Below, in pieces: positions 27,001 through 39,000 of a DNA stretch of 64,000 nucleotides. Source of the DNA: Gemmatimonadota bacterium (GTDB lineage: Bacteria > Gemmatimonadota > Gemmatimonadetes > Palauibacterales > Palauibacteraceae); assembly GCA_046758745.1 (NCBI GenBank), contig JBHIAV010000005.1:1-64000 (forward strand), given 5' to 3'. A program made the position numbers. Position 1 is the first letter of the stretch; the number at the start of each line of letters is the position of its first letter.

Positions 27001-30000
27001 GGATGGTCATGCCCGGGACGGCGTCCTGCTTCACCCGTAGCACCGGGATGAAGAAGGAGTGGATCACGTCCTCGGAGGTCAGTCGGACGATGATCGGTTC
27101 GCCCACCGGGATGTGGAACTGATTGCGGATCGTGAAGTCGTCTTCGTTGCCGGGGATCCGGTCCGTTCCGGGGTAGGTGACGTTCCACTCGAACTGCTTG
27201 GCCGTCACGCTCAGGGTGAGGGCGTCCTCCGGAAACGAGTCGGGGCCGCGGATGTCCGCCCAGATGCGTCCGCTGTAGATGCCGAGGAGGACCACGGTGA
27301 CCGCGGTCACCGATGTCCACGTCACCTCGGCCCGCACATCGCCGTGCGTGTACCGCGCGCGGTGCCCCTCGCGCCGCCGGTATCTGAAGACGAACCACAG
27401 GACGCCCGTTTCGACGATCACGAAGGCGATGCCGGTGACCCAGGCGATGATCCAGAAGAGCCGGTCGATGTCGACGCCCTGCGTCGAGGCGTTGATCGGT
27501 AGCGACCAGTCCATGCCCTCTCCCCTTTTCAGTCGCGATCGAGGCGGGGCGCCGCGCGTCGGACGAAAGCCCGAGATGCGCGGCGTCCCCGGCCGAAGCT
27601 CATCGCGCGGCCGCCGCGTGGACCCCGTGCAGGTCGATCGGCTCGCCGAGCGGCACGACGGCATCGGCCGCCATGTCACTGCGGAAGGTGAAGCTGATCT
27701 CCTTCGTCTCCTGCGCGCCCACCGTGACGTTTTGGGTGAGCGTGCCGTACAGCTCGTGCCACGCCTCGACGACGTAGTCTCCCGGCGGCAGCCCGTCGAG
27801 GGTGAAGGATCCGTTCGACCCGGAGACGGAGTGGAAGGGGTGCTCCGTGACGCCGATGTAGGCCTCCATCCACCCGTGCACGTCGCACTTCACCGGGACC
27901 ATGATCTCGGGGAAGGCGAACTTTTTCGTCGTCTCCATTCCCTCACGCGGCTGGCTCACGTTGAAGCCGCGGTTCTCCGTCGGCTGGGTGTTGATGTTGT
28001 GCAGCAGCGGGTCGCTGTTCCTGATGAGGAGCGGCTGCCCGGCCTGGATCCCCAGCACGTGCGGATGGTACCGGCAGCCATCCTGGTCGATCACGACTGG
28101 CTCCGAGGGTGGCGCGAAGCTCTGGCTGAGCCCGGACTTCACGTACACGAAGACATTGGCCAGCCGCCCGTCCGTCACCACCACGCCCTCGGTCATGGGC
28201 GGGCCTTCCTCGTACTTGACAGCGCAGTCCGGCTCCTCGGCCATGTCGATCGGCTGCGCGGCAGGCGGCGTACCCTCGAAAGCAATGTGGCCGCGAATCG
28301 TGGCGGCGACCGCCGGATCGACGGCCGGCGCGGCCGATGCGGCTTCGCCGCCTTCCTCCGCGCCCGCGCTCTCGCCCTCGCCTCCACCGCCGCACGCCAT
28401 GAGGCCCACCAGAAGGACCCCGGTCGCCAGCATCCTCTCTCGATCTCTCATCCCTTGCCTCCGAAGAAAGAGCCTCCGACTCTCGGCAGAGCCGTTCTCA
28501 CACCATGACCGCCTGCGCCTCCTCCTCCCGGCGCGCCCGCCGCTGCGCTCGCGATACCGCCAGCAGACCGAGGCCGCCGGTGAGCAGCACGGCCAACACG
28601 GGCGCCGCGTACCGGACGGTGGAGGCGGGTTCCTCCAGGTACACATAGTACCATCCGCTCACCGATCCCCGCACGGCCGTCTCCCCGCTGGAGCCATCCC
28701 ACGCGAAGAACGCCACCGGGATGGCGACACCCTCCTGGAAGGCGAGCGCCCCTTCCGTCTTTGTCACCAGGGCACGCCGGAAGTGCACGCGCCACCGGCC
28801 GTCATCGTACGCGGCGGAGCCGCCCACTCCCTCGCCGTCCATCGGCTGGAGCTGGCCGAGCCCCCGGGCCCAGGCCTCGCCGACCCCACCCTCGCTCCCC
28901 CAGCTCCAAAGGTACACGGGCCTCCGTCCGTCGCCCATCAGGAAGTACGGCCTCTCCATCCCTTCCGGGATCGTCGGCGGGAACTGCACGAGAAGCCCGT
29001 CGGGGAGATGCGGCAGCTCGGTGACGGTCGTATCCCGATCGTCGGCGAAGAGCGTGGCCGTGATCTTTTCCTGCCACTCGTCCCACGAGGGATCCGGACT
29101 GCGTGAGGGGTCCGACCAGCTCACGCGCATCGCCAGCTCCGTCCCGTCGTGCGCCGCCTGCACCCACACCCCATCCACCGCGGGTGCCAACTGGCGGGGC
29201 TTCTGGATCACCTGACCGACGAGGGGGATGTAGAAGGTCTCCATCTTGTCCCACCCCTGCGCGTCGGGACCGTCCGGGAGAGGGCCCTCGAACCGGCGCG
29301 CGACGATTACGTCCCGCACGCGGGGCTCGCTCTCCGGCGCGAGGCTGCGGACGTAGCGCGCCAGGTCCCACAGCTCCTTGTCGGACACCACCCCGGAGGC
29401 GAGGGCGTCGCTGTACGCCGGCATCGGCGTGCCGTCCAGCCCGGTGAGCATCCGAGTGTGGATCGCCTCGACCGTGAAGCCGCCGTTGAAGCCCCAGGGC
29501 TCGGTGAGATCGGCCGCGCGGATGGGCAGCTTCCGCCAATCCTCGAGCGTCGGCGCCGATTGTCCGTTGCCACGGCCGGAGTCGCCATGGCACTTCCAGC
29601 ACTCGAGCGCCCGGTAGGCGTCCCTCCCGGACTCGAGGGCGTCCGCCCCACCGCCCGGGTCGCTCCCCAGATCGGCCGGCTGCGGGGCGGCCCCCTGGAA
29701 GAAGCGCGAGAAGCTCTTGATGTAGGCGATCACGTCCCGTCGCTCGGCCTCGCCGAGGTTCGGCCACGCCGGCATCACGGTGCCCGGCATGCCGTTGCGC
29801 AACACGTTGAGGAGATCCTCATCGGTCGGGAGCTCCCCGCTCGCCGTGGTGCGAATCTGGTAGCGTGCCTGCACGAAGTCGCGCGGCCGCGGGAGCATCC
29901 GATCGGCGGCCGGACCGTCGCCGCGTCCCTCGGCGCCGTGACACTCCACGCACCACTTCTCGTACAGCGCCCTCCCCCGCTCCGCGTCCTGCGCCCCGCA

Positions 30001-36000: not shown

Positions 36001-39000
36001 TCAGGTTCTCGGCCTGCGACCCCATCTCCGTGCCGTCGACGCGGTGCGCCCCGTGTCGGGCCAGCACCAGCAGAGTCGGCTCGACCTCCTCGGCCCACTG
36101 GAGCACCACCTGGAAGGGCTTCCCGATGAGGATCTGCGTCGCGAGCTTGACGTCCGGGTACTCCTTCGCCATCGCCTCGGCCCGCTTGAGGTTGGCCTGG
36201 CAGAGACGGAGCAGACCCTTGTCGATGATGTTGTTGTGCAGCTCCTCCTGCTCCTCGAACTTGAAGACCTTCGAGGCCTGCACGGAGAGGACGTCCTTGA
36301 TGTTGTTGAAGACGACGTGGTGGTACTCGACGTCGAAGGCGCTGCACACGAAGAGCTTGGCCCCGAACTCTCGCGCCATCTCCAGCGCCATCCGCATCGC
36401 CTTGTAGCAGTAAGACGATCCATCAATGCACACCATCCACCGTCCGCCCTGTAGCGGCCGGTCGTCACGCACGATGAGGACATCCTTGTGCACCGAACGG
36501 ACCACGCGGGAGACCACGCCGCCGAGCTGCGAGTAGGGCTGACGTCCGATGCCGTGCGCCCCTATGGCCAGGAGGTCGTAGCGTCGCCCGGAAGAGCCGG
36601 CGAGCTTCCGCTCCGAGTCTTCTTCCTCCGCCACGAGGCGACCGGTCTCGCTGATCTTCACGTCGCTGCGAACGACGTCGCCGCCGTCGTATCGGGCGGC
36701 GATGTTCGGATCGAACCCGATGAGGCTCGGGAGCTGGCCGCGGCCCTCGTTCGCCTCCCGGATGATCTCCTCGAAGTTGATCCCCTCGAGGAGCTGCCGG
36801 GTGAGCGGCGCACCCGCCTCCGAGCAGCGCTGGGCGACCCGGTCCAGAAAGCTGTCCGCGATGAGCTGGAGACCCTTCTCGATCAGCTTGTCGTGAATCT
36901 TCCGCTGTCGCTTGATCTCCTCGGAAGTCTGGAAGCGAGCGGGGAGCCCGCTCTCCAGCTGGCGGAAGCGAATGTCGTGGAGCCGCGCTGCGTACACGTG
37001 GTTCGCCGTGATGCGGCCGCCCGACCGCGAGCACAGCTCGATCGCGCGCTCGAGGGCCCAATCAGAGTGGACCGAGTTGTCCACGGGAACGAGCAGCTCA
37101 CGGTACATCGACACCTCGAATCCAGGGGTGCCGCCGCCCAAGTGGGAGCGCGGGAGGCGCCGGGCGTGCGGGAGGGGCGAGCCGCAGGGCCGGTGGTGAC
37201 GCGGCTCCGCCCGCGAAGCAGCGCGCGACGGTCTCGGAGCCGGATCTCCACCTCAGCCCCACGAGCCTCTCGACCCGTCGTTCCCGAGGCCCACTTCGAT
37301 TCCGGCGTAGGGCGCGCGCCGCGCGCGGCGGGCCCGCCTCTATCGGTGAGACGGGCCCCCGCCCGTCCCGAATTCGACTCGAAAGGAGCGCCTCTCCCCT
37401 GACCCGGGAGTGCGCTCGGCGTGAGTATATAGCCGCGGCGGCGACAGCTGTCAAACGCCGCCAAACAGGCGCTCTCGAGGCGCGGACGACCCCCCGATCC
37501 ACCGCTCTCCGCGCCCGAGGAACGCTCTCGCCGGCGGGTTCGGATGGGCTCACGCAGCCGCTCCGGCGAGCCGGCGGGCGAGGGTCGGCGCCGCCGCGAG
37601 AACAAGCCCCGCCCCCAGCAGGACGACGGCGATGGGCCCGATCCACGAGGCGAGGGGACCGACCCCGCCGGTACCCGTCAGCGCCCGGGTGACCGCAGGG
37701 GACCCCGCCGAGACAGCGAGCAGGCCGTCGTGGAGCGGGCCGAATGGGCTGAGGTGTTCCACCGTCTCGGCCCATGTTCCGGGCCCGGCCGCGCGGAACA
37801 CCCCGCTCAGGTGGAGCGCGAAGAGCGACGCCGCCGCGCACGCGAGGGCGCCCTCGGCGAGCGAGCGCACGAGCGCCGCGATGACACTTCCGAGGAGGTT
37901 TCCGAAGAGAAGCGCGAGCAGCAGCCCCGCCGCGGCGCCGAGGCCCGGCGCCCACGAGGCTCCGGAGACCGCGAGCAGGATGAGGAGGAGGGGCAGGAGC
38001 TGGAGCGCGTCCAGGGCCGCCGCCGCGATCGTACGCTCGGCGAGCCAGGCGCGCTCGCCATACCCGGTCAGCCTCACTTTCTCCACCCAGCCGGACGCCC
38101 CCTCTCGCACGAGCGGGATGCAGCTCCCAAAGGTGGCGAAGAAGACGATGAAGACGCTGAACACGGCCGCCCGGTGCGGTGCGGCCGCCGGACTCGCCGC
38201 CACCGGGAGCAGAAGCGCGACGGGGACGATCACGTTCCAGGCGAAGAGTCGGCGACGCGTGAGGGCGATCCGCCACTCCAGGGCCCACACGCGCCCGATC
38301 ACGGGTGCTCCCTCCCCCGACCCTCTCTGTCCCTCACGGGCCGCCGCGAGCGGAGAGACCCGTCCCCCGCAGCGCCGTCTCGTCGGGGGCCGGGGCCGCC
38401 CCGTCGAGGGGAACCCCGGCCAGCTCCAGGAAGACGTCGGCAAGGTTCGGCTCGTGCACCCGAATGGAGCGGGGCTCGCACCCGGCCTCGAGCAGGCGTG
38501 CGCACAGCTCCGGGAGCGCGGCGCCCCCCGCGGGTGAAGCGAAGCGTGCTCCCTGCGGATACAGTGCCAGCGTCCGCACCTGCGGCTGCGGTTCGAAGCT
38601 CCTGCTCGGCATCTTTCCCGACACCTCGATCACGGTCTCCTTCGCCAGCCCGGCGATGAGGTCGCGGGGAGGGCCGTCCGCGATGAGCCTTCCGCCGTGC
38701 AGGAAAGCGACCCGGCTGCACGCCGTCTCCACGAACGCCGGATCGTTGGAGGCCACCAGGGCCGCCGCTCCTCTCGACGCCGCATCGGCCATGGCCGCTC
38801 GCAGCGCCGCCACGCCGAGGGGATCCAGCCCGAGCGTGGGCTCGTCGAGCAGGAGGAGGTCGGCTGATGCGGCCACCGCCTCTGCGAGGGCGAGACGGCG
38901 GCGCATCCCGTGCGAGTAGATCGATACCCTTTCCACAGCGCGGTCGGCGAGGCCGAAGTCGCGCAGCGCGCTATCCAGCGCACCGGCCGCTGCCTCGCCC

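Follow-up and report, generated by a model that had tools for sequence, protein, structure and literature searches.

A cluster of four genes for a bd-like membrane protein, cytochromes and an alternative NxrC is already known from Nitrospira, Nitrospina and anammox bacteria, as is its proposed link to nitrite oxidoreductase (NXR). Passages of Mundinger 2019 (PMC6606698) and Hu 2019 (PMC6423088) treat the bd-like, two-cytochrome and alt-NxrC genes together with uspA as NXR-associated, in line with the remark of an earlier note on this DNA that bd-like proteins of nitrite oxidisers had been described before. In Table 1 of the latter paper the NXR cluster of Kuenenia includes Usp, cydA-like and cytochrome genes. 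The complex is also discussed in parts of PMC10839748 and of a preprint (10.1101/2021.01.16.426971). According to passages of PMC10839748 and PMC6606698, views on the bd-like subunit are split between an O2 reductase and a quinone-linked anchor.

The window analysed here, a stretch of 64,000 nucleotides from a Longimicrobiales-like Gemmatimonadota MAG, holds a related set of genes. The earlier note had described a six-gene module at 28498-37108. Gene calls and Pfam confirmed all six genes on the minus strand with the domains assigned to them, but the conserved unit is longer: judging from gene calls, Pfam and tblastn of related loci, it outruns these borders at either side and covers about 21.9-41.5 kb of the window, entirely on the minus strand. 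It consists of three blocks, namely a maturation block (Block A, 41461-33625), an electron-transfer block (Block B, 33595-27600) and, following it, an oxidase block (Block C). Gene starts and ends were set by a GC3-based gene call, domains by Pfam and NCBIfam, and transmembrane (TM) helices were predicted. For comparison we used 80 related loci centred on the radical SAM gene of Block A, with tblastn of the locus genes within 10 kb. We hold with moderate confidence that the region is one respiratory supercluster, in which a bd-like complex is accompanied by its own putative tailoring genes and NXR is an optional partner.

The electron-transfer block and the aa3 oxidase

Block B opens with a bd-like membrane protein of the OR-N type (31796..33595, minus strand) with at least 12 predicted TM helices and no CxxCH, which matches PF01654 only over positions 4-240 of 418. 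Its N-terminal helices align with those of CydA in 5doq and 9r2g, both His being kept, and H61, E148, H171, H229, H381 and H530 are invariant in 16 sequences. A membrane-anchored dihaem cytochrome c follows (30988..31785, minus strand; two CxxCH, one N-terminal TM helix; Pfam); the GC3 gene call placed its start within an open frame extending to 31911. The next gene (u268; 30063..30869, minus strand), previously listed as an unknown of 268 aa, in fact encodes a monohaem cytochrome c (Cytochrome_CBB3, 1.8e-9; CVPCH), for which three TM helices are predicted; C168, C171, H172, M229 and H124 are invariant in 14 sequences.

The fourth gene (c2-EB_dh; 28498..30111, minus strand) encodes a signal peptide, a dihaem cytochrome c, an NxrC/EbdC-like EB_dh domain and a C-terminal TM anchor (Pfam), an architecture identical to that of Nitrospira 'alt_NxrC'. 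It scores 2e-29 with TIGR03477, under the family cut-off (NCBIfam). The dihaem part matches 6h5l_B (7.7e-49), and the EB_dh part 2ivf_C and 7b04_C. Whether the EB_dh domain binds haem b is uncertain from the alignment because, although a Met aligns, the Lys of EbdC/NxrC aligns to Gly, and none of the Met, Lys and His residues in this domain is invariant. The block ends with a lipoprotein (27600..28433, minus strand) that combines a lipobox-like N-terminus and CarboxypepD_reg (PF13620, 1.1e-8) with a type-1-copper-like His/Cys/His/Met motif. Its H145, C183, H186 and M189 are invariant in 17 sequences (20 in another alignment). A sequence search of the PDB gave no cupredoxin match, and the motif by itself suggests a putative copper site.

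The four genes from the bd-like protein to c2-EB_dh form a fixed unit. They lie within 10 kb in 21 of the 80 loci, two of which (L010 and L019) end before c2-EB_dh. Their order is kept in all eight bd-like neighbourhoods with an unlinked radical SAM gene, drawn from Poribacteria, two Nitrospina, Brocadia, another Planctomycetota MAG, Rhizobiaceae, Anammoxibacter and Scalinduaceae. The earlier note had set c2-EB_dh apart from the other five families, whereas in these eight it is a constant member. Paralogues of c2-EB_dh occur on contigs C12 and C53 of this genome. The partial paralogue of the module on C12 was recovered with tblastn and Pfam; in that region the copper/CarboxypepD_reg gene occurs twice, and Usp and radical SAM genes are missing.

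Block C (21906..27514, minus strand; Pfam) is an aa3-type haem-copper (cytochrome c) oxidase operon of COX2 (26834-27514), COX1 (25042-26811), COX3 (24386-25045), COX4 (24106-24375), the haem o synthase CtaB (22865-24037; TIGR01473 above cut-off) and, at its end, a 320-aa protein with no assigned family (21906-22868), all on the minus strand. Of the 80 loci, 14 contain COX1; in 13 of these the module is followed by COX1-COX3, and L042 gave a COX1 match only. Loci combining module and COX genes span Gemmatimonadota, Acidobacteriota, Bacteroidota/Rhodothermales and others.

We suppose that the Block B proteins form one membrane complex, in which the periplasmic haems c, the EB_dh domain and the copper protein would exchange electrons with periplasmic donors, and that the bd-like subunit would receive or supply these electrons. 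The likely partner of the complex in this genome is the aa3 oxidase encoded next to it. For the bd-like subunit we lean somewhat towards coupling to the quinone pool, O2 reduction being a less favoured possibility, because 2-5 copies occur in anammox genomes and an oxidase operon comes after the module here.

The radical SAM enzyme and its co-occurrence with the bd-like unit

The last gene of Block A (33625..34986, minus strand) encodes a protein with Radical_SAM, SPASM and PCP_red domains (Pfam), referred to below as rSAM-PCP_red. An alignment across phyla revealed CX3CX2C and eight more conserved Cys. The enzyme had been called nearest to SkfB and PqqE, which is correct among solved structures only; in NCBIfam NirJ2 (3.7e-87) and AhbD (3.4e-85), both under their family cut-offs, score far better than PqqE (3.1e-30) and SkfB (5.5e-25). 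In a tree, all 37 PCP_red-bearing representatives fell into one clade of 43 (SH-like support 100), which, judged by sequence, is sister to the haem-modifying AhbD/NirJ enzymes.

This clade tracks the four-gene unit, with exceptions. The 80 loci come from genomes of which 69 hold the clade; a full-length bd-like orthologue (41-85% identity) was found in 67 of these 69, and no bd-like match in the other two (G035 and G046). None of the 11 outgroup genomes, which hold plain AhbD/NirJ2-like proteins without PCP_red, has one. In a sample of 151 Gemmatimonadota the bd-like orthologue and rSAM-PCP_red occur in the identical 41 genomes (24 of 83 genera) and are adjacent in all, a co-occurrence that partly reflects one operon inherited as a block among kin that are not independent. 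The two genes also share the identical 8 of 151 Acidobacteriota genomes, and in at least three of these they are on separate contigs or about 25 kb apart. Among 81 Nitrospinota genomes, 67 have both, four neither and 10, of unknown completeness, are discordant. Because the four genes always go together, co-occurrence does not single out the client of rSAM-PCP_red within the unit.

These patterns bear on the idea that rSAM-PCP_red is simply an AhbD isoform for housekeeping haem b synthesis without O2, located near respiratory genes by convenience. The AhbD score, the annotation 'AdoMet-dependent heme synthase' in some sources and the abundance of the family, about 70% conserved within phylum, would agree with it. 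However, 110 of 151 Gemmatimonadota and 143 of 151 Acidobacteriota, all of which need haem, gave no match to the gene, its presence matches the bd-like gene exactly in both samples, and its clade is separate from plain AhbD-like proteins. Moreover, this genome has HemY with a TIGR04053 radical SAM protein (above cut-off), ferrochelatase and ChdC, so that haem b synthesis here, as far as gene content indicates, does not depend on rSAM-PCP_red. We consider a housekeeping role very improbable. A search of this genome, which is 87% complete, gave no sirohaem decarboxylase. Haem-biosynthesis genes do not adjoin rSAM-PCP_red with any consistency, HemC and an HmuY-like gene lying nearby in few loci only.

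The remaining Block A genes and a proposed tailoring function

The run begins with a 142-aa protein (41033..41461, minus strand; GC3-based gene call) for which TM prediction gives three helices and neither Pfam nor NCBIfam a match. Its gene overlaps the next one and has tblastn matches in only three of the 80 loci, and its membership of the unit is uncertain. It is followed by a P-loop ATPase of the Mrp/NUBPL type, a family of Fe-S cluster carriers (40149..41066, minus strand; PF10609, 5.6e-64; NF041136 MrpORP in NCBIfam, 1.6e-64, under cut-off), which adjoins rSAM-PCP_red in 23 of 69 bacterial loci from seven taxon groups. A small protein of 149 aa (39703..40152, minus strand) has a C-terminal PCP_red domain (PF08369, 6.7e-13) and, by inspection, an N-terminal CxxC...CxxC motif; it is present in 24 of the 69 bacterial loci, and its atlas clusters, labelled 'PCP reductase family', come from Gemmatimonadota, Acidobacteriota and Nitrospirota. 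Next are an 85-aa 4Fe-4S ferredoxin (39347..39604, minus strand; PF13370, 2.2e-8) with tblastn matches in the Gemmatimonadota loci L010-L012 and L014-L017, and an ABC-2 type exporter (37550..39350, minus strand; PF00005, PF01061; ATPase 38334-39350, permease 37550-38302). As both exporter genes were found by tblastn in only three of the 80 loci (L015-L017), they are probably a lineage-specific insert.

Between exporter and rSAM-PCP_red lies Usp-PCP_red (35099..37141, minus strand), a cytoplasmic protein of 680 aa with tandem Usp (PF00582, 7e-34) and two PCP_red domains (PF08369, 2e-14; the second match is weak), and with numerous conserved His and Cys in the alignment. An orthologue (at least 220 bits) adjoins rSAM-PCP_red in 41 of the 80 loci; where it is not adjacent, it was found elsewhere in four of five genomes. 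All four PCP_red matches of this genome lie within this locus (Pfam). In comparison with solved structures the domain maps onto the C-terminus of BchB, the helix of which covers the protochlorophyllide cavity, as described in a passage of PMC4071322.

From these gene families we propose a maturation role for Block A. Tentatively, and with somewhat less than even confidence, its products may make or insert an O2-independently tailored tetrapyrrole, a haem derivative, for the Block B complex. Like AhbD and NirJ, rSAM-PCP_red would act on a side chain of an iron-tetrapyrrole, the PCP_red domains might be tetrapyrrole lids or hand-over modules, and the Mrp ATPase and ferredoxin would provide clusters and electrons.

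SPASM enzymes are peptide maturases for the most part, and some, such as QhpD, install radical modifications in a subunit. The set could, by analogy, cross-link or otherwise modify a subunit of the bd-like complex that has yet to be exported or inserted into the membrane, with PCP_red as a peptide- or protein-recognition module. The full SPASM cysteine set, the kinship with PqqE and SkfB among solved structures, the ABC exporter of this genome and the strict co-occurrence with the complex, which fits equally well, can be cited in favour. Still, we judge this unlikely: the E-values for the haem enzyme families are better by about 55 orders of magnitude, PCP_red is otherwise known solely from a tetrapyrrole enzyme, the neighbour clusters of the rSAM loci include no conserved small precursor gene, and the exporter is rare. 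A regulatory or stress-response control of the respiratory genes by Usp-PCP_red, rSAM-PCP_red and Mrp could be imagined as well, given that Usp domains are typical for stress and nucleotide-sensing proteins, that a histidine kinase gene follows the radical SAM gene in Brocadia and another Planctomycetota locus, and that one representative (P0148) is fused to a HATPase_c domain. Yet the radical SAM and SPASM domains keep an intact set of clusters across phyla, which points to catalysis, and the Mrp-type ATPase and ferredoxin suit the support of an Fe-S enzyme, leaving regulation with hardly any probability in our estimate.

NXR as an optional partner of the module

The tailoring proposal differs from the earlier note, which had seen for the whole set a likely accessory or maturing role towards periplasmic NXR-type molybdoenzymes, here an unlinked NXR. 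As it had reported, nxrA-s92-nxrB-nxrD-nxrC of this genome are located on contig C53, apart from the module; the NxrC encoded there is a c2-EB_dh protein itself, 34% identical to that of Block B. The claim that the module families occur in a minority of NXR loci (11 of 75) also recurred in an independent set of metagenome contigs with 77 NxrA loci, some of which look duplicated (L152/L153, L160/L161): bd-like, dihaem and u268 genes are present in 10, Usp-PCP_red in eight and rSAM-PCP_red in seven. Flanks of at least 6 kb on either side were available for 19 loci, seven of which have the entire set. The gene order agreed with the earlier description, also in the placing of Usp-PCP_red upstream on the opposite strand, as found in L151 and L152. 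A betaproteobacterial MAG from GTDB (L053) shows the same order of NXR and module genes, and in an anammox-type cluster (L094) the NXR genes likewise lie inside the module. In NXR-linked loci NxrA-s92-NxrB-NxrD-NxrC occupies the slot of c2-EB_dh, which suggests that NxrAB, where present, might dock via an EB_dh subunit.

These loci, the Kuenenia cluster, the joint presence of module and NXR in this genome and the Nitrospira, Nitrospina and anammox MAGs among the holders of rSAM-PCP_red all speak for an accessory role, and part of that claim, the location beside NXR, stands. Nevertheless, rSAM-PCP_red covaries with the bd-like gene, and NXR is not the general partner: 40 of the 41 module-bearing Gemmatimonadota genomes, in a sample mostly at least 94% complete, gave no NxrA match (E <= 1e-40), and the lack of such a type II DMSO-reductase-family enzyme in most module-bearing genomes of this sample counts against the NXR reading. 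NxrA was found in two of the 151 genomes, the present one and G058, which lacks the module, and in none of the 10 Gemmatimonadota and eight Poribacteria genomes behind the rSAM loci. It lies within 10 kb of the radical SAM gene in one of the 80 loci and anywhere in the genome in six of 50 rSAM-holding genomes; conversely, 67 of the 77 NxrA loci are without the module within the available flanks. In addition, rSAM-PCP_red is of the haem-enzyme type and not of the molybdenum-cofactor or tungsten-maturase type. A dedicated NXR module is thus quite improbable to us, and NXR is an optional partner.

Compared with the described clusters of nitrite oxidisers and anammox bacteria, what appears to be new from the gene content is the obligate companion set of haem-type radical SAM and PCP_red proteins of the bd-like unit and the apparent spread of the module next to aa3 oxidases in bacteria without NXR.

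Gene content of the cluster on contig C5

The earlier note had described six genes at 28498-37108 of contig C5 and had read five of them, all but that for the cytochrome c2-EB_dh protein, as likely accessory or maturation parts of periplasmic NXR-type enzymes. All six are present with the Pfam domains assigned to them, but a GC3-based gene call together with Pfam and NCBIfam searches of the flanks revealed that they form only the middle of a longer gene run. The window has a G+C content of about 70%, and all genes of interest lie on its minus strand. The names given to the closest relatives of its radical SAM protein point to Gemmatimonadota/Longimicrobiales. 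The upstream flank codes for a 142-aa protein with three TM segments (41033-41461), a Mrp/NUBPL-type P-loop ATPase (40149-41066), a 149-aa protein combining a CxxC...CxxC motif with a PCP_red domain (39703-40152), a small ferredoxin (39347-39604) and an ABC-2 exporter (37550-39350). The downstream flank begins with a lipoprotein in which an invariant His/Cys/His/Met motif accompanies a CarboxypepD_reg domain (27600-28433). It is followed by a complete aa3-type oxidase operon (22865-27514) for COX2, COX1, COX3, COX4 and haem o synthase. The aa3-type haem-copper oxidase was recognized by PF00115 (4.6e-156), PF00116, PF00510 and PF03626, with COX1-COX4 all present, and the haem o synthase scores 265.8 with TIGR01473, above the cut-off of 210.3. 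Four PCP_red matches were found in this genome (G000); they reside in three proteins, every one encoded in the C5 locus. A promoter and terminator scan of 21.8-41.7 kb gave nothing useful for the operon limits. DNA near-identical to positions 30000-37200 occurs in four DNA runs of a hydrothermal vent metagenome, all from one study and one of them perhaps derived from the sample of origin; no RNA run was among the runs listed for this stretch.

Divergent from the cluster lies a gene for a HmuY-family haem-binding lipoprotein (41986-42618, plus strand), and a gene for porphobilinogen deaminase HemC (43118-44074, minus strand) is found about 2 kb beyond it. A HmuY-like gene is located near the module in just two of 80 related loci (L014 and L015). 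In 12 Nitrospira and eight Poribacteria loci, the radical SAM-PCP_red gene is adjoined by a gene for a small membrane protein (about 170 aa) that resembles CopD (e.g. L020 9347-9856 and L069 11354-11893, both on the plus strand). We considered whether the 142-aa membrane protein of C5 is its counterpart and rejected this, as no similarity between them was found.

The bd-like protein has a CydA-like N-terminal four-helix core (PF01654, 3.5e-22, profile positions 4-240 of 418). When it is aligned to the CydA chains of the solved structures 5doq and 9r2g, the two haem-ligand His are kept, and comparison with 5doq_A shows that the conserved His equivalent to E. coli His19 and the Glu of FFxE are retained as well. 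In 16 sequences H61, E148, H171, H229, H381 and H530 are invariant. The Pfam and PDB matches end before the Q-loop region, a missing match that alone is no proof of Q-loop absence. Three cytochrome c genes follow the bd-like gene, and hydropathy predicts at least 12 TM segments, OR-N proteins having 10 or 14. Judging from its sequence, the bd-like subunit may serve either O2 reduction or quinone coupling.

The 268-aa protein (u268), previously listed as an unknown, combines a haem c motif (CVPCH) with three TM helices by prediction. The dihaem part of the c2-EB_dh protein matches 6h5l chain B (7.7e-49), its EB_dh part matches EbdC and Kuenenia NxrC, and its TIGR03477 score is 102 versus a cut-off of 169.85. 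In the alignment, the Met of the MG..PV..W.W motif is matched, and a Gly stands opposite the Lys of EbdC/NxrC; in EbdC, Met and Lys are the axial ligands of haem b. In the putative copper lipoprotein a His...Cys-x2-His-x2-Met set (H145, C183, H186, M189) is invariant in 17 sequences. A cupredoxin match for this protein was found neither by Pfam nor by PDB sequence search.

Linkage to NXR and distribution across phyla

Tblastn of G000 and Pfam bore out the partial paralogue on contig C12, where two putative copper/CarboxypepD_reg genes are followed by genes for bd-like, dihaem, u268-like and c2-EB_dh proteins, with neither a Usp gene nor a radical SAM gene. The stretch 28744-35759 of C12 (L001 10744-17759) codes for extra dihaem cytochromes, a plastocyanin/sulfocyanin-like protein, a porin and a sigma-54 response regulator. 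A Rieske/cytochrome b-c complex, a plastocyanin-like protein and a further CarboxypepD_reg paralogue are encoded on contig C36 (L003).

The nxrA-s92-nxrB-nxrD-nxrC operon is indeed present on contig C53 (locus L002), and hence it is unlinked from the module on C5. It codes for NxrA (1166 aa, with a twin-arginine-like N-terminus), s92 (a 92-aa ORF, L002 5821-6099), NxrB, an NxrD-type chaperone and NxrC (L002 2269-3813, minus strand). The latter is a dihaem-cytochrome-c-EB_dh fusion, 34% identical to the c2-EB_dh protein of C5. Since NxrC is built like the C5 and C12 proteins, G000 has three paralogues of this architecture, and c2-EB_dh, which had been set apart from the NXR link, is therefore the module protein with direct homology to an NXR subunit. 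Divergent from the nxr operon, a 718-aa multihaem cytochrome with MtrC/cytochrome c7-like Pfam matches is encoded at 10522-12678 (plus strand) of C53.

With the C53 NxrA as query we collected 77 NxrA loci from metagenome contigs. Genes for bd-like, dihaem and u268 proteins are located immediately upstream of nxrA in ten of them, Usp-PCP_red occurs in eight and the radical SAM-PCP_red protein in seven, and the full set is present in 7 of the 19 loci having at least 6 kb on both sides. The gene order is bd-like, dihaem, u268, NxrA, NxrB, NxrD, NxrC, Usp-PCP_red, radical SAM-PCP_red; in loci L151 and L152 Usp-PCP_red is upstream on the opposite strand. The pattern previously counted in 11 of 75 NXR loci was thus reproduced, including the two loci with the displaced Usp-PCP_red gene. 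Within the available flanks, the module was not seen in the other 67 NxrA loci. In the NXR-linked lineage the nxr genes occupy the slot that c2-EB_dh has when the module is free of NXR, and the last of them codes for NxrC, itself an EB_dh protein. The C5 genes have the composition of an NXR accessory cluster, i.e. a bd-like protein, two membrane cytochromes c and a paralogue of NxrC in which a TM helix is combined with two CxxCH motifs. Dependence on, or linkage to, nxrAB was not found for the C5 module.

An alignment of 22 full-length members of the radical SAM family was used to fetch 80 loci (flanks up to 10 kb, one genome per species). Eleven of these, from archaea, an Omnitrophota MAG and Lucifera, are plain AhbD/NirJ2-like genes lacking the PCP_red part and served as outgroup, and three more matches are cut by contig ends. 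The remaining loci stem from Gemmatimonadota, Poribacteria, anammox and other Planctomycetota, Nitrospina, Nitrospira, Acidobacteriota, Bacteroidota/Rhodothermales, several Proteobacteria and Methylomirabilota. Tblastn with the G000 proteins detected Usp-PCP_red (at least 220 bits) in 41 of the 80 loci, the four-gene unit of bd-like, dihaem, u268 and c2-EB_dh in 21 (two of which end before c2-EB_dh), COX1 in 14 (together with COX2 and COX3 in 13), and NxrA in a single locus (L053). According to a clustering of neighbouring ORFs, 23 of the 69 bacterial loci encode the Mrp ATPase and 24 the small PCP_red protein. An aa3 oxidase adjoins the module in G000 and in 12 other loci from several phyla.

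A full-length bd-like orthologue (41-85% identity) is encoded in 67 of 69 genomes holding the PCP_red clade versus none of 11 outgroup genomes (66 of 68 without G002, the genome of locus L011, which is flagged as unpublished). Of the first 50 genomes from which the 80 loci were drawn, six encode NxrA. We also inspected eight bd-like neighbourhoods unlinked to the radical SAM gene, from Poribacteria, two Nitrospina, Brocadia, another Planctomycetota MAG, Rhizobiaceae, Anammoxibacter and Scalinduaceae. Each of the eight shows bd-like, dihaem, u268 and c2-EB_dh in this sequence, and a gene for the putative copper lipoprotein lies beside the unit in five. Locus L094, from another Planctomycetota MAG, has bd-like, dihaem, u268, c2-EB_dh, Usp-PCP_red, NxrC, NxrB, NxrD and NxrA in a row.

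At the genome level, the radical SAM-PCP_red gene is present in 41 of 151 Gemmatimonadota genomes (145 of them at least 90% complete), and the bd-like gene in the same 41, adjacent in every case and across 24 of 83 genera. NxrA is encoded only in G000 and G058, so that it is present in 1 and absent from 40 of the 41 module-bearing genomes. The G058 protein (C79:34696-38136 of that genome) is 60% identical, and G058 lacks the bd-like and radical SAM module. Among 151 Acidobacteriota genomes, eight hold both the radical SAM-PCP_red gene and the bd-like orthologue (7 of 150 without G326, also flagged as unpublished); in at least three of these the two genes either lie on separate contigs or have about 25 kb between them, and one more genome has a plain AhbD-like gene only. 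The 81 Nitrospinota genomes, MAGs of unstated completeness, comprise 71 with radical SAM-PCP_red and 73 with the bd-like orthologue: 67 have both genes, 4 neither and 10 only one. It is important to note that kin in such genome samples are not independent. The adjacency in Gemmatimonadota reflects one operon inherited as a block, and the Acidobacteriota, Poribacteria and Nitrospina cases weigh more because the genes lie apart there.

Since the module is widespread in bacteria that lack NXR, and an aa3 oxidase operon often follows it directly, it is reasonable to regard it as a general respiratory module with no speciality in nitrite oxidation. The best-supported reading is that the bd-like/alt-NxrC complex is such a module with its own maturation genes; NXR would then be one optional catalytic head. 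That the radical SAM set serves the bd-like complex is well supported by their co-occurrence. Its frequent occurrence without NXR, in Gemmatimonadota, Acidobacteriota, Poribacteria and other groups, brings non-nitrifying and more tractable hosts into reach, and its genes should be used with caution as markers of nitrite oxidation in metagenomes.

The radical SAM-PCP_red enzyme and its companions

By NCBIfam, the C5 radical SAM protein ranks highest with NirJ2 (3.7e-87) and AhbD, haem b synthase (3.4e-85), followed by TIGR04053 and NirJ; PqqE (3.1e-30) and SkfB (5.5e-25) score far lower. The haem-enzyme families compared were TIGR04545, TIGR04055 and TIGR04051, and none of the curated equivalog cut-offs is reached (NirJ2 292.9 of 500 bits, AhbD 286.5 of 500, NirJ 186.8 of 515). 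The earlier note had called the protein nearest to SkfB and PqqE. This holds for the solved structures, whose matches included no entry for AhbD or NirJ, but not for the family profiles. The protein aligns full-length with the AhbD/NirJ families (residues 33-363). In 22 full-length members, the CX3CX2C cysteines C42, C46 and C49 are nearly invariant, and C250, C274, C292, C329, C332, C338, C341 and C359, including auxiliary-cluster cysteines, are invariant. In a FastTree phylogeny of 126 representatives, all 37 PCP_red-bearing sequences fall into one clade of 43 with an SH-like support of 100, and a second AhbD-like protein of G000, encoded on contig C51, is placed outside it in the other part of the tree. 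The only domain additions detected in relatives were further copies of PCP_red, a single HATPase_c fusion and one gene call that is likely chimeric. Anammox bacteria and some other relatives carry two to four PCP_red repeats on the radical SAM protein itself (L031 9947-12037, L027 10472-12238; representatives P0143 and P0156).

Like AhbD and NirJ/NirJ2, its best-scoring families, the C5 protein has the CX3CX2C motif and the auxiliary-cluster cysteines, but it belongs to a separate clade, has an additional PCP_red domain, and co-occurs with the bd-like complex instead of ahb or nir genes. No sirohaem-pathway context (AhbA/B, NirDLGH) accompanies it, and a search of G000, a genome of 87% completeness, found no sirohaem decarboxylase (PF17805). 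This genome has the coproporphyrin-pathway genes for HemY, ferrochelatase and ChdC (C9 5619-6296). The C51 protein (297-1415, L004), a TIGR04053 radical SAM/SPASM protein scoring above the cut-off, is encoded tail to tail with HemY. G000 may have both O2-dependent and O2-independent coprohaem decarboxylases. With this gene set, the C5 enzyme is not needed for ordinary haem b synthesis.

The PCP_red profile (PF08369) maps to residues ~464-522 of the 525 of BchB in solved structures of DPOR. According to the portion of PMC4071322 available, the C-terminal helix of BchB covers the tetrapyrrole cavity. The module proteins share this 45-residue helical domain with BchB/ChlB but lack the nitrogenase-like Oxidored_nitro domain; instead, PCP_red is fused to Usp, to the radical SAM part or to a Cys4 motif, and in some relatives it is repeated up to four times. 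An atlas search with the small PCP_red protein returned only its own family. Nitrospira and Poribacteria Usp-PCP_red proteins have three PCP_red domains each, and that of Poribacteria also has a rubredoxin-like domain. We rejected haem-regulatory 'CP' motifs in Usp-PCP_red, as conservation of C636 and C648 among 42 sequences is just 24%. A Zetaproteobacteria MAG (G031) encodes near its bd-like gene a Usp-PCP_red protein (C8:11225-13192) 66% identical to that of G000. This identity equals the level within Gemmatimonadota, which suggests lateral transfer of the module.

From the family scores and the PCP_red domain we consider it possible, though somewhat short of an even chance, that the radical SAM set tailors a tetrapyrrole. 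The main alternative is that it modifies a protein instead; the solved structures place SkfB and PqqE nearest, and the family profiles favour NirJ2 and AhbD by a wide margin. If a tetrapyrrole is indeed the substrate, a broader and still more tentative proposal would be that OR-N-type bd-like complexes, found in nitrite oxidisers, anammox bacteria and many heterotrophs across at least eight phyla or candidate phyla, rely on their own O2-independent pathway for tailoring a tetrapyrrole. This would comprise a radical SAM enzyme that resembles AhbD/NirJ and bears a lid domain of the BchB type, a tandem-Usp-PCP_red carrier, the small PCP_red protein and a Mrp-type ATPase; the haem derivative or haem-insertion route of this uncharacterised enzyme family would be new, and NXR would be only one of several catalytic heads attached via an EB_dh subunit. 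No other part of the respiratory chain of Nitrospira, Nitrospina and anammox bacteria is as poorly understood as the bd-like complex, whose candidate functions are those of a terminal oxidase and of a quinone-linked NXR anchor (PMC10839748, PMC6606698). A radical SAM companion tracking it gene for gene across phyla offers a concrete handle, namely one cytoplasmic enzyme with an altered haem as readout.

Comparison with known systems

The closest published counterpart is the alt_NxrC_2/bd-like_3 cluster of N. moscoviensis (Mundinger et al. 2019, PMC6606698), whose alt_NxrC_2 has one TM helix and two haem motifs. In the sections available, this cluster is called 'highly conserved' in Nitrospira, Nitrospina and anammox bacteria, and is proposed to be an NXR anchor that may reach the quinone pool. 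The C5 orthologues in Nitrospina and anammox genomes keep the same gene order; the C5 module differs in belonging to a Gemmatimonadota MAG, in adjoining an aa3 oxidase and in being unlinked from nxr. The same sections of PMC6606698 do not mention radical SAM, PCP_red or Usp partners alongside alt_NxrC_2/bd-like_3.

In Kuenenia stuttgartiensis, kustd1699-1713 are listed as 'NXR and its accessory proteins' (Hu et al. 2019, PMC6423088, Table 1; available in part). Along with nxrABC the list contains uspA (kustd1706), mono-, di- and tetrahaem proteins and the cydA-like kustd1712, and the Planctomycetota locus L094 likewise joins the bd-like unit, Usp-PCP_red and nxr genes. By this gene list, our sole basis of comparison, the Kuenenia cluster has no radical SAM gene; in the anammox MAGs inspected the radical SAM-PCP_red gene sits elsewhere, with two to three PCP_red repeats (L027, L031).

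Bd-like proteins of this kind have been placed in the OR-N family of the bd superfamily (Murali, Gennis and Hemp, preprint 10.1101/2021.01.16.426971; Nitrospinota study PMC10839748). The excerpts available describe OR-N proteins as putative cytochrome c-oxidising O2 reductases that are also conserved in Nitrospinota lineages apparently not oxidising nitrite, and the terms 'radical SAM' and 'universal stress' are absent from these excerpts. The C5 protein shares with the OR-N family the CydA-like N-terminal helix core with its His, many TM helices and an operon with cytochrome c donors, and it has no match to the quinol-binding part. From the published Nitrospira, Kuenenia and OR-N descriptions it follows that the four-gene unit and its NXR link were already known. 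In the library searched we found no paper joining bd-like or PCP_red with radical SAM, and none that, as noted before, brings together nitrite oxidoreductase, bd-like and radical SAM; preprint supplements may contain relevant operon tables. Literature searches for AhbD with cytochrome bd, or for PF08369, gave only unrelated papers.

A parallel in gene arrangement is known from Bacteroidota and relatives, where the genes for alternative complex III precede those for a caa3 oxidase. In both cases an electron-transfer membrane complex is encoded directly upstream of a haem-copper oxidase operon, but the proteins are unrelated, and the likeness is one of gene arrangement only.
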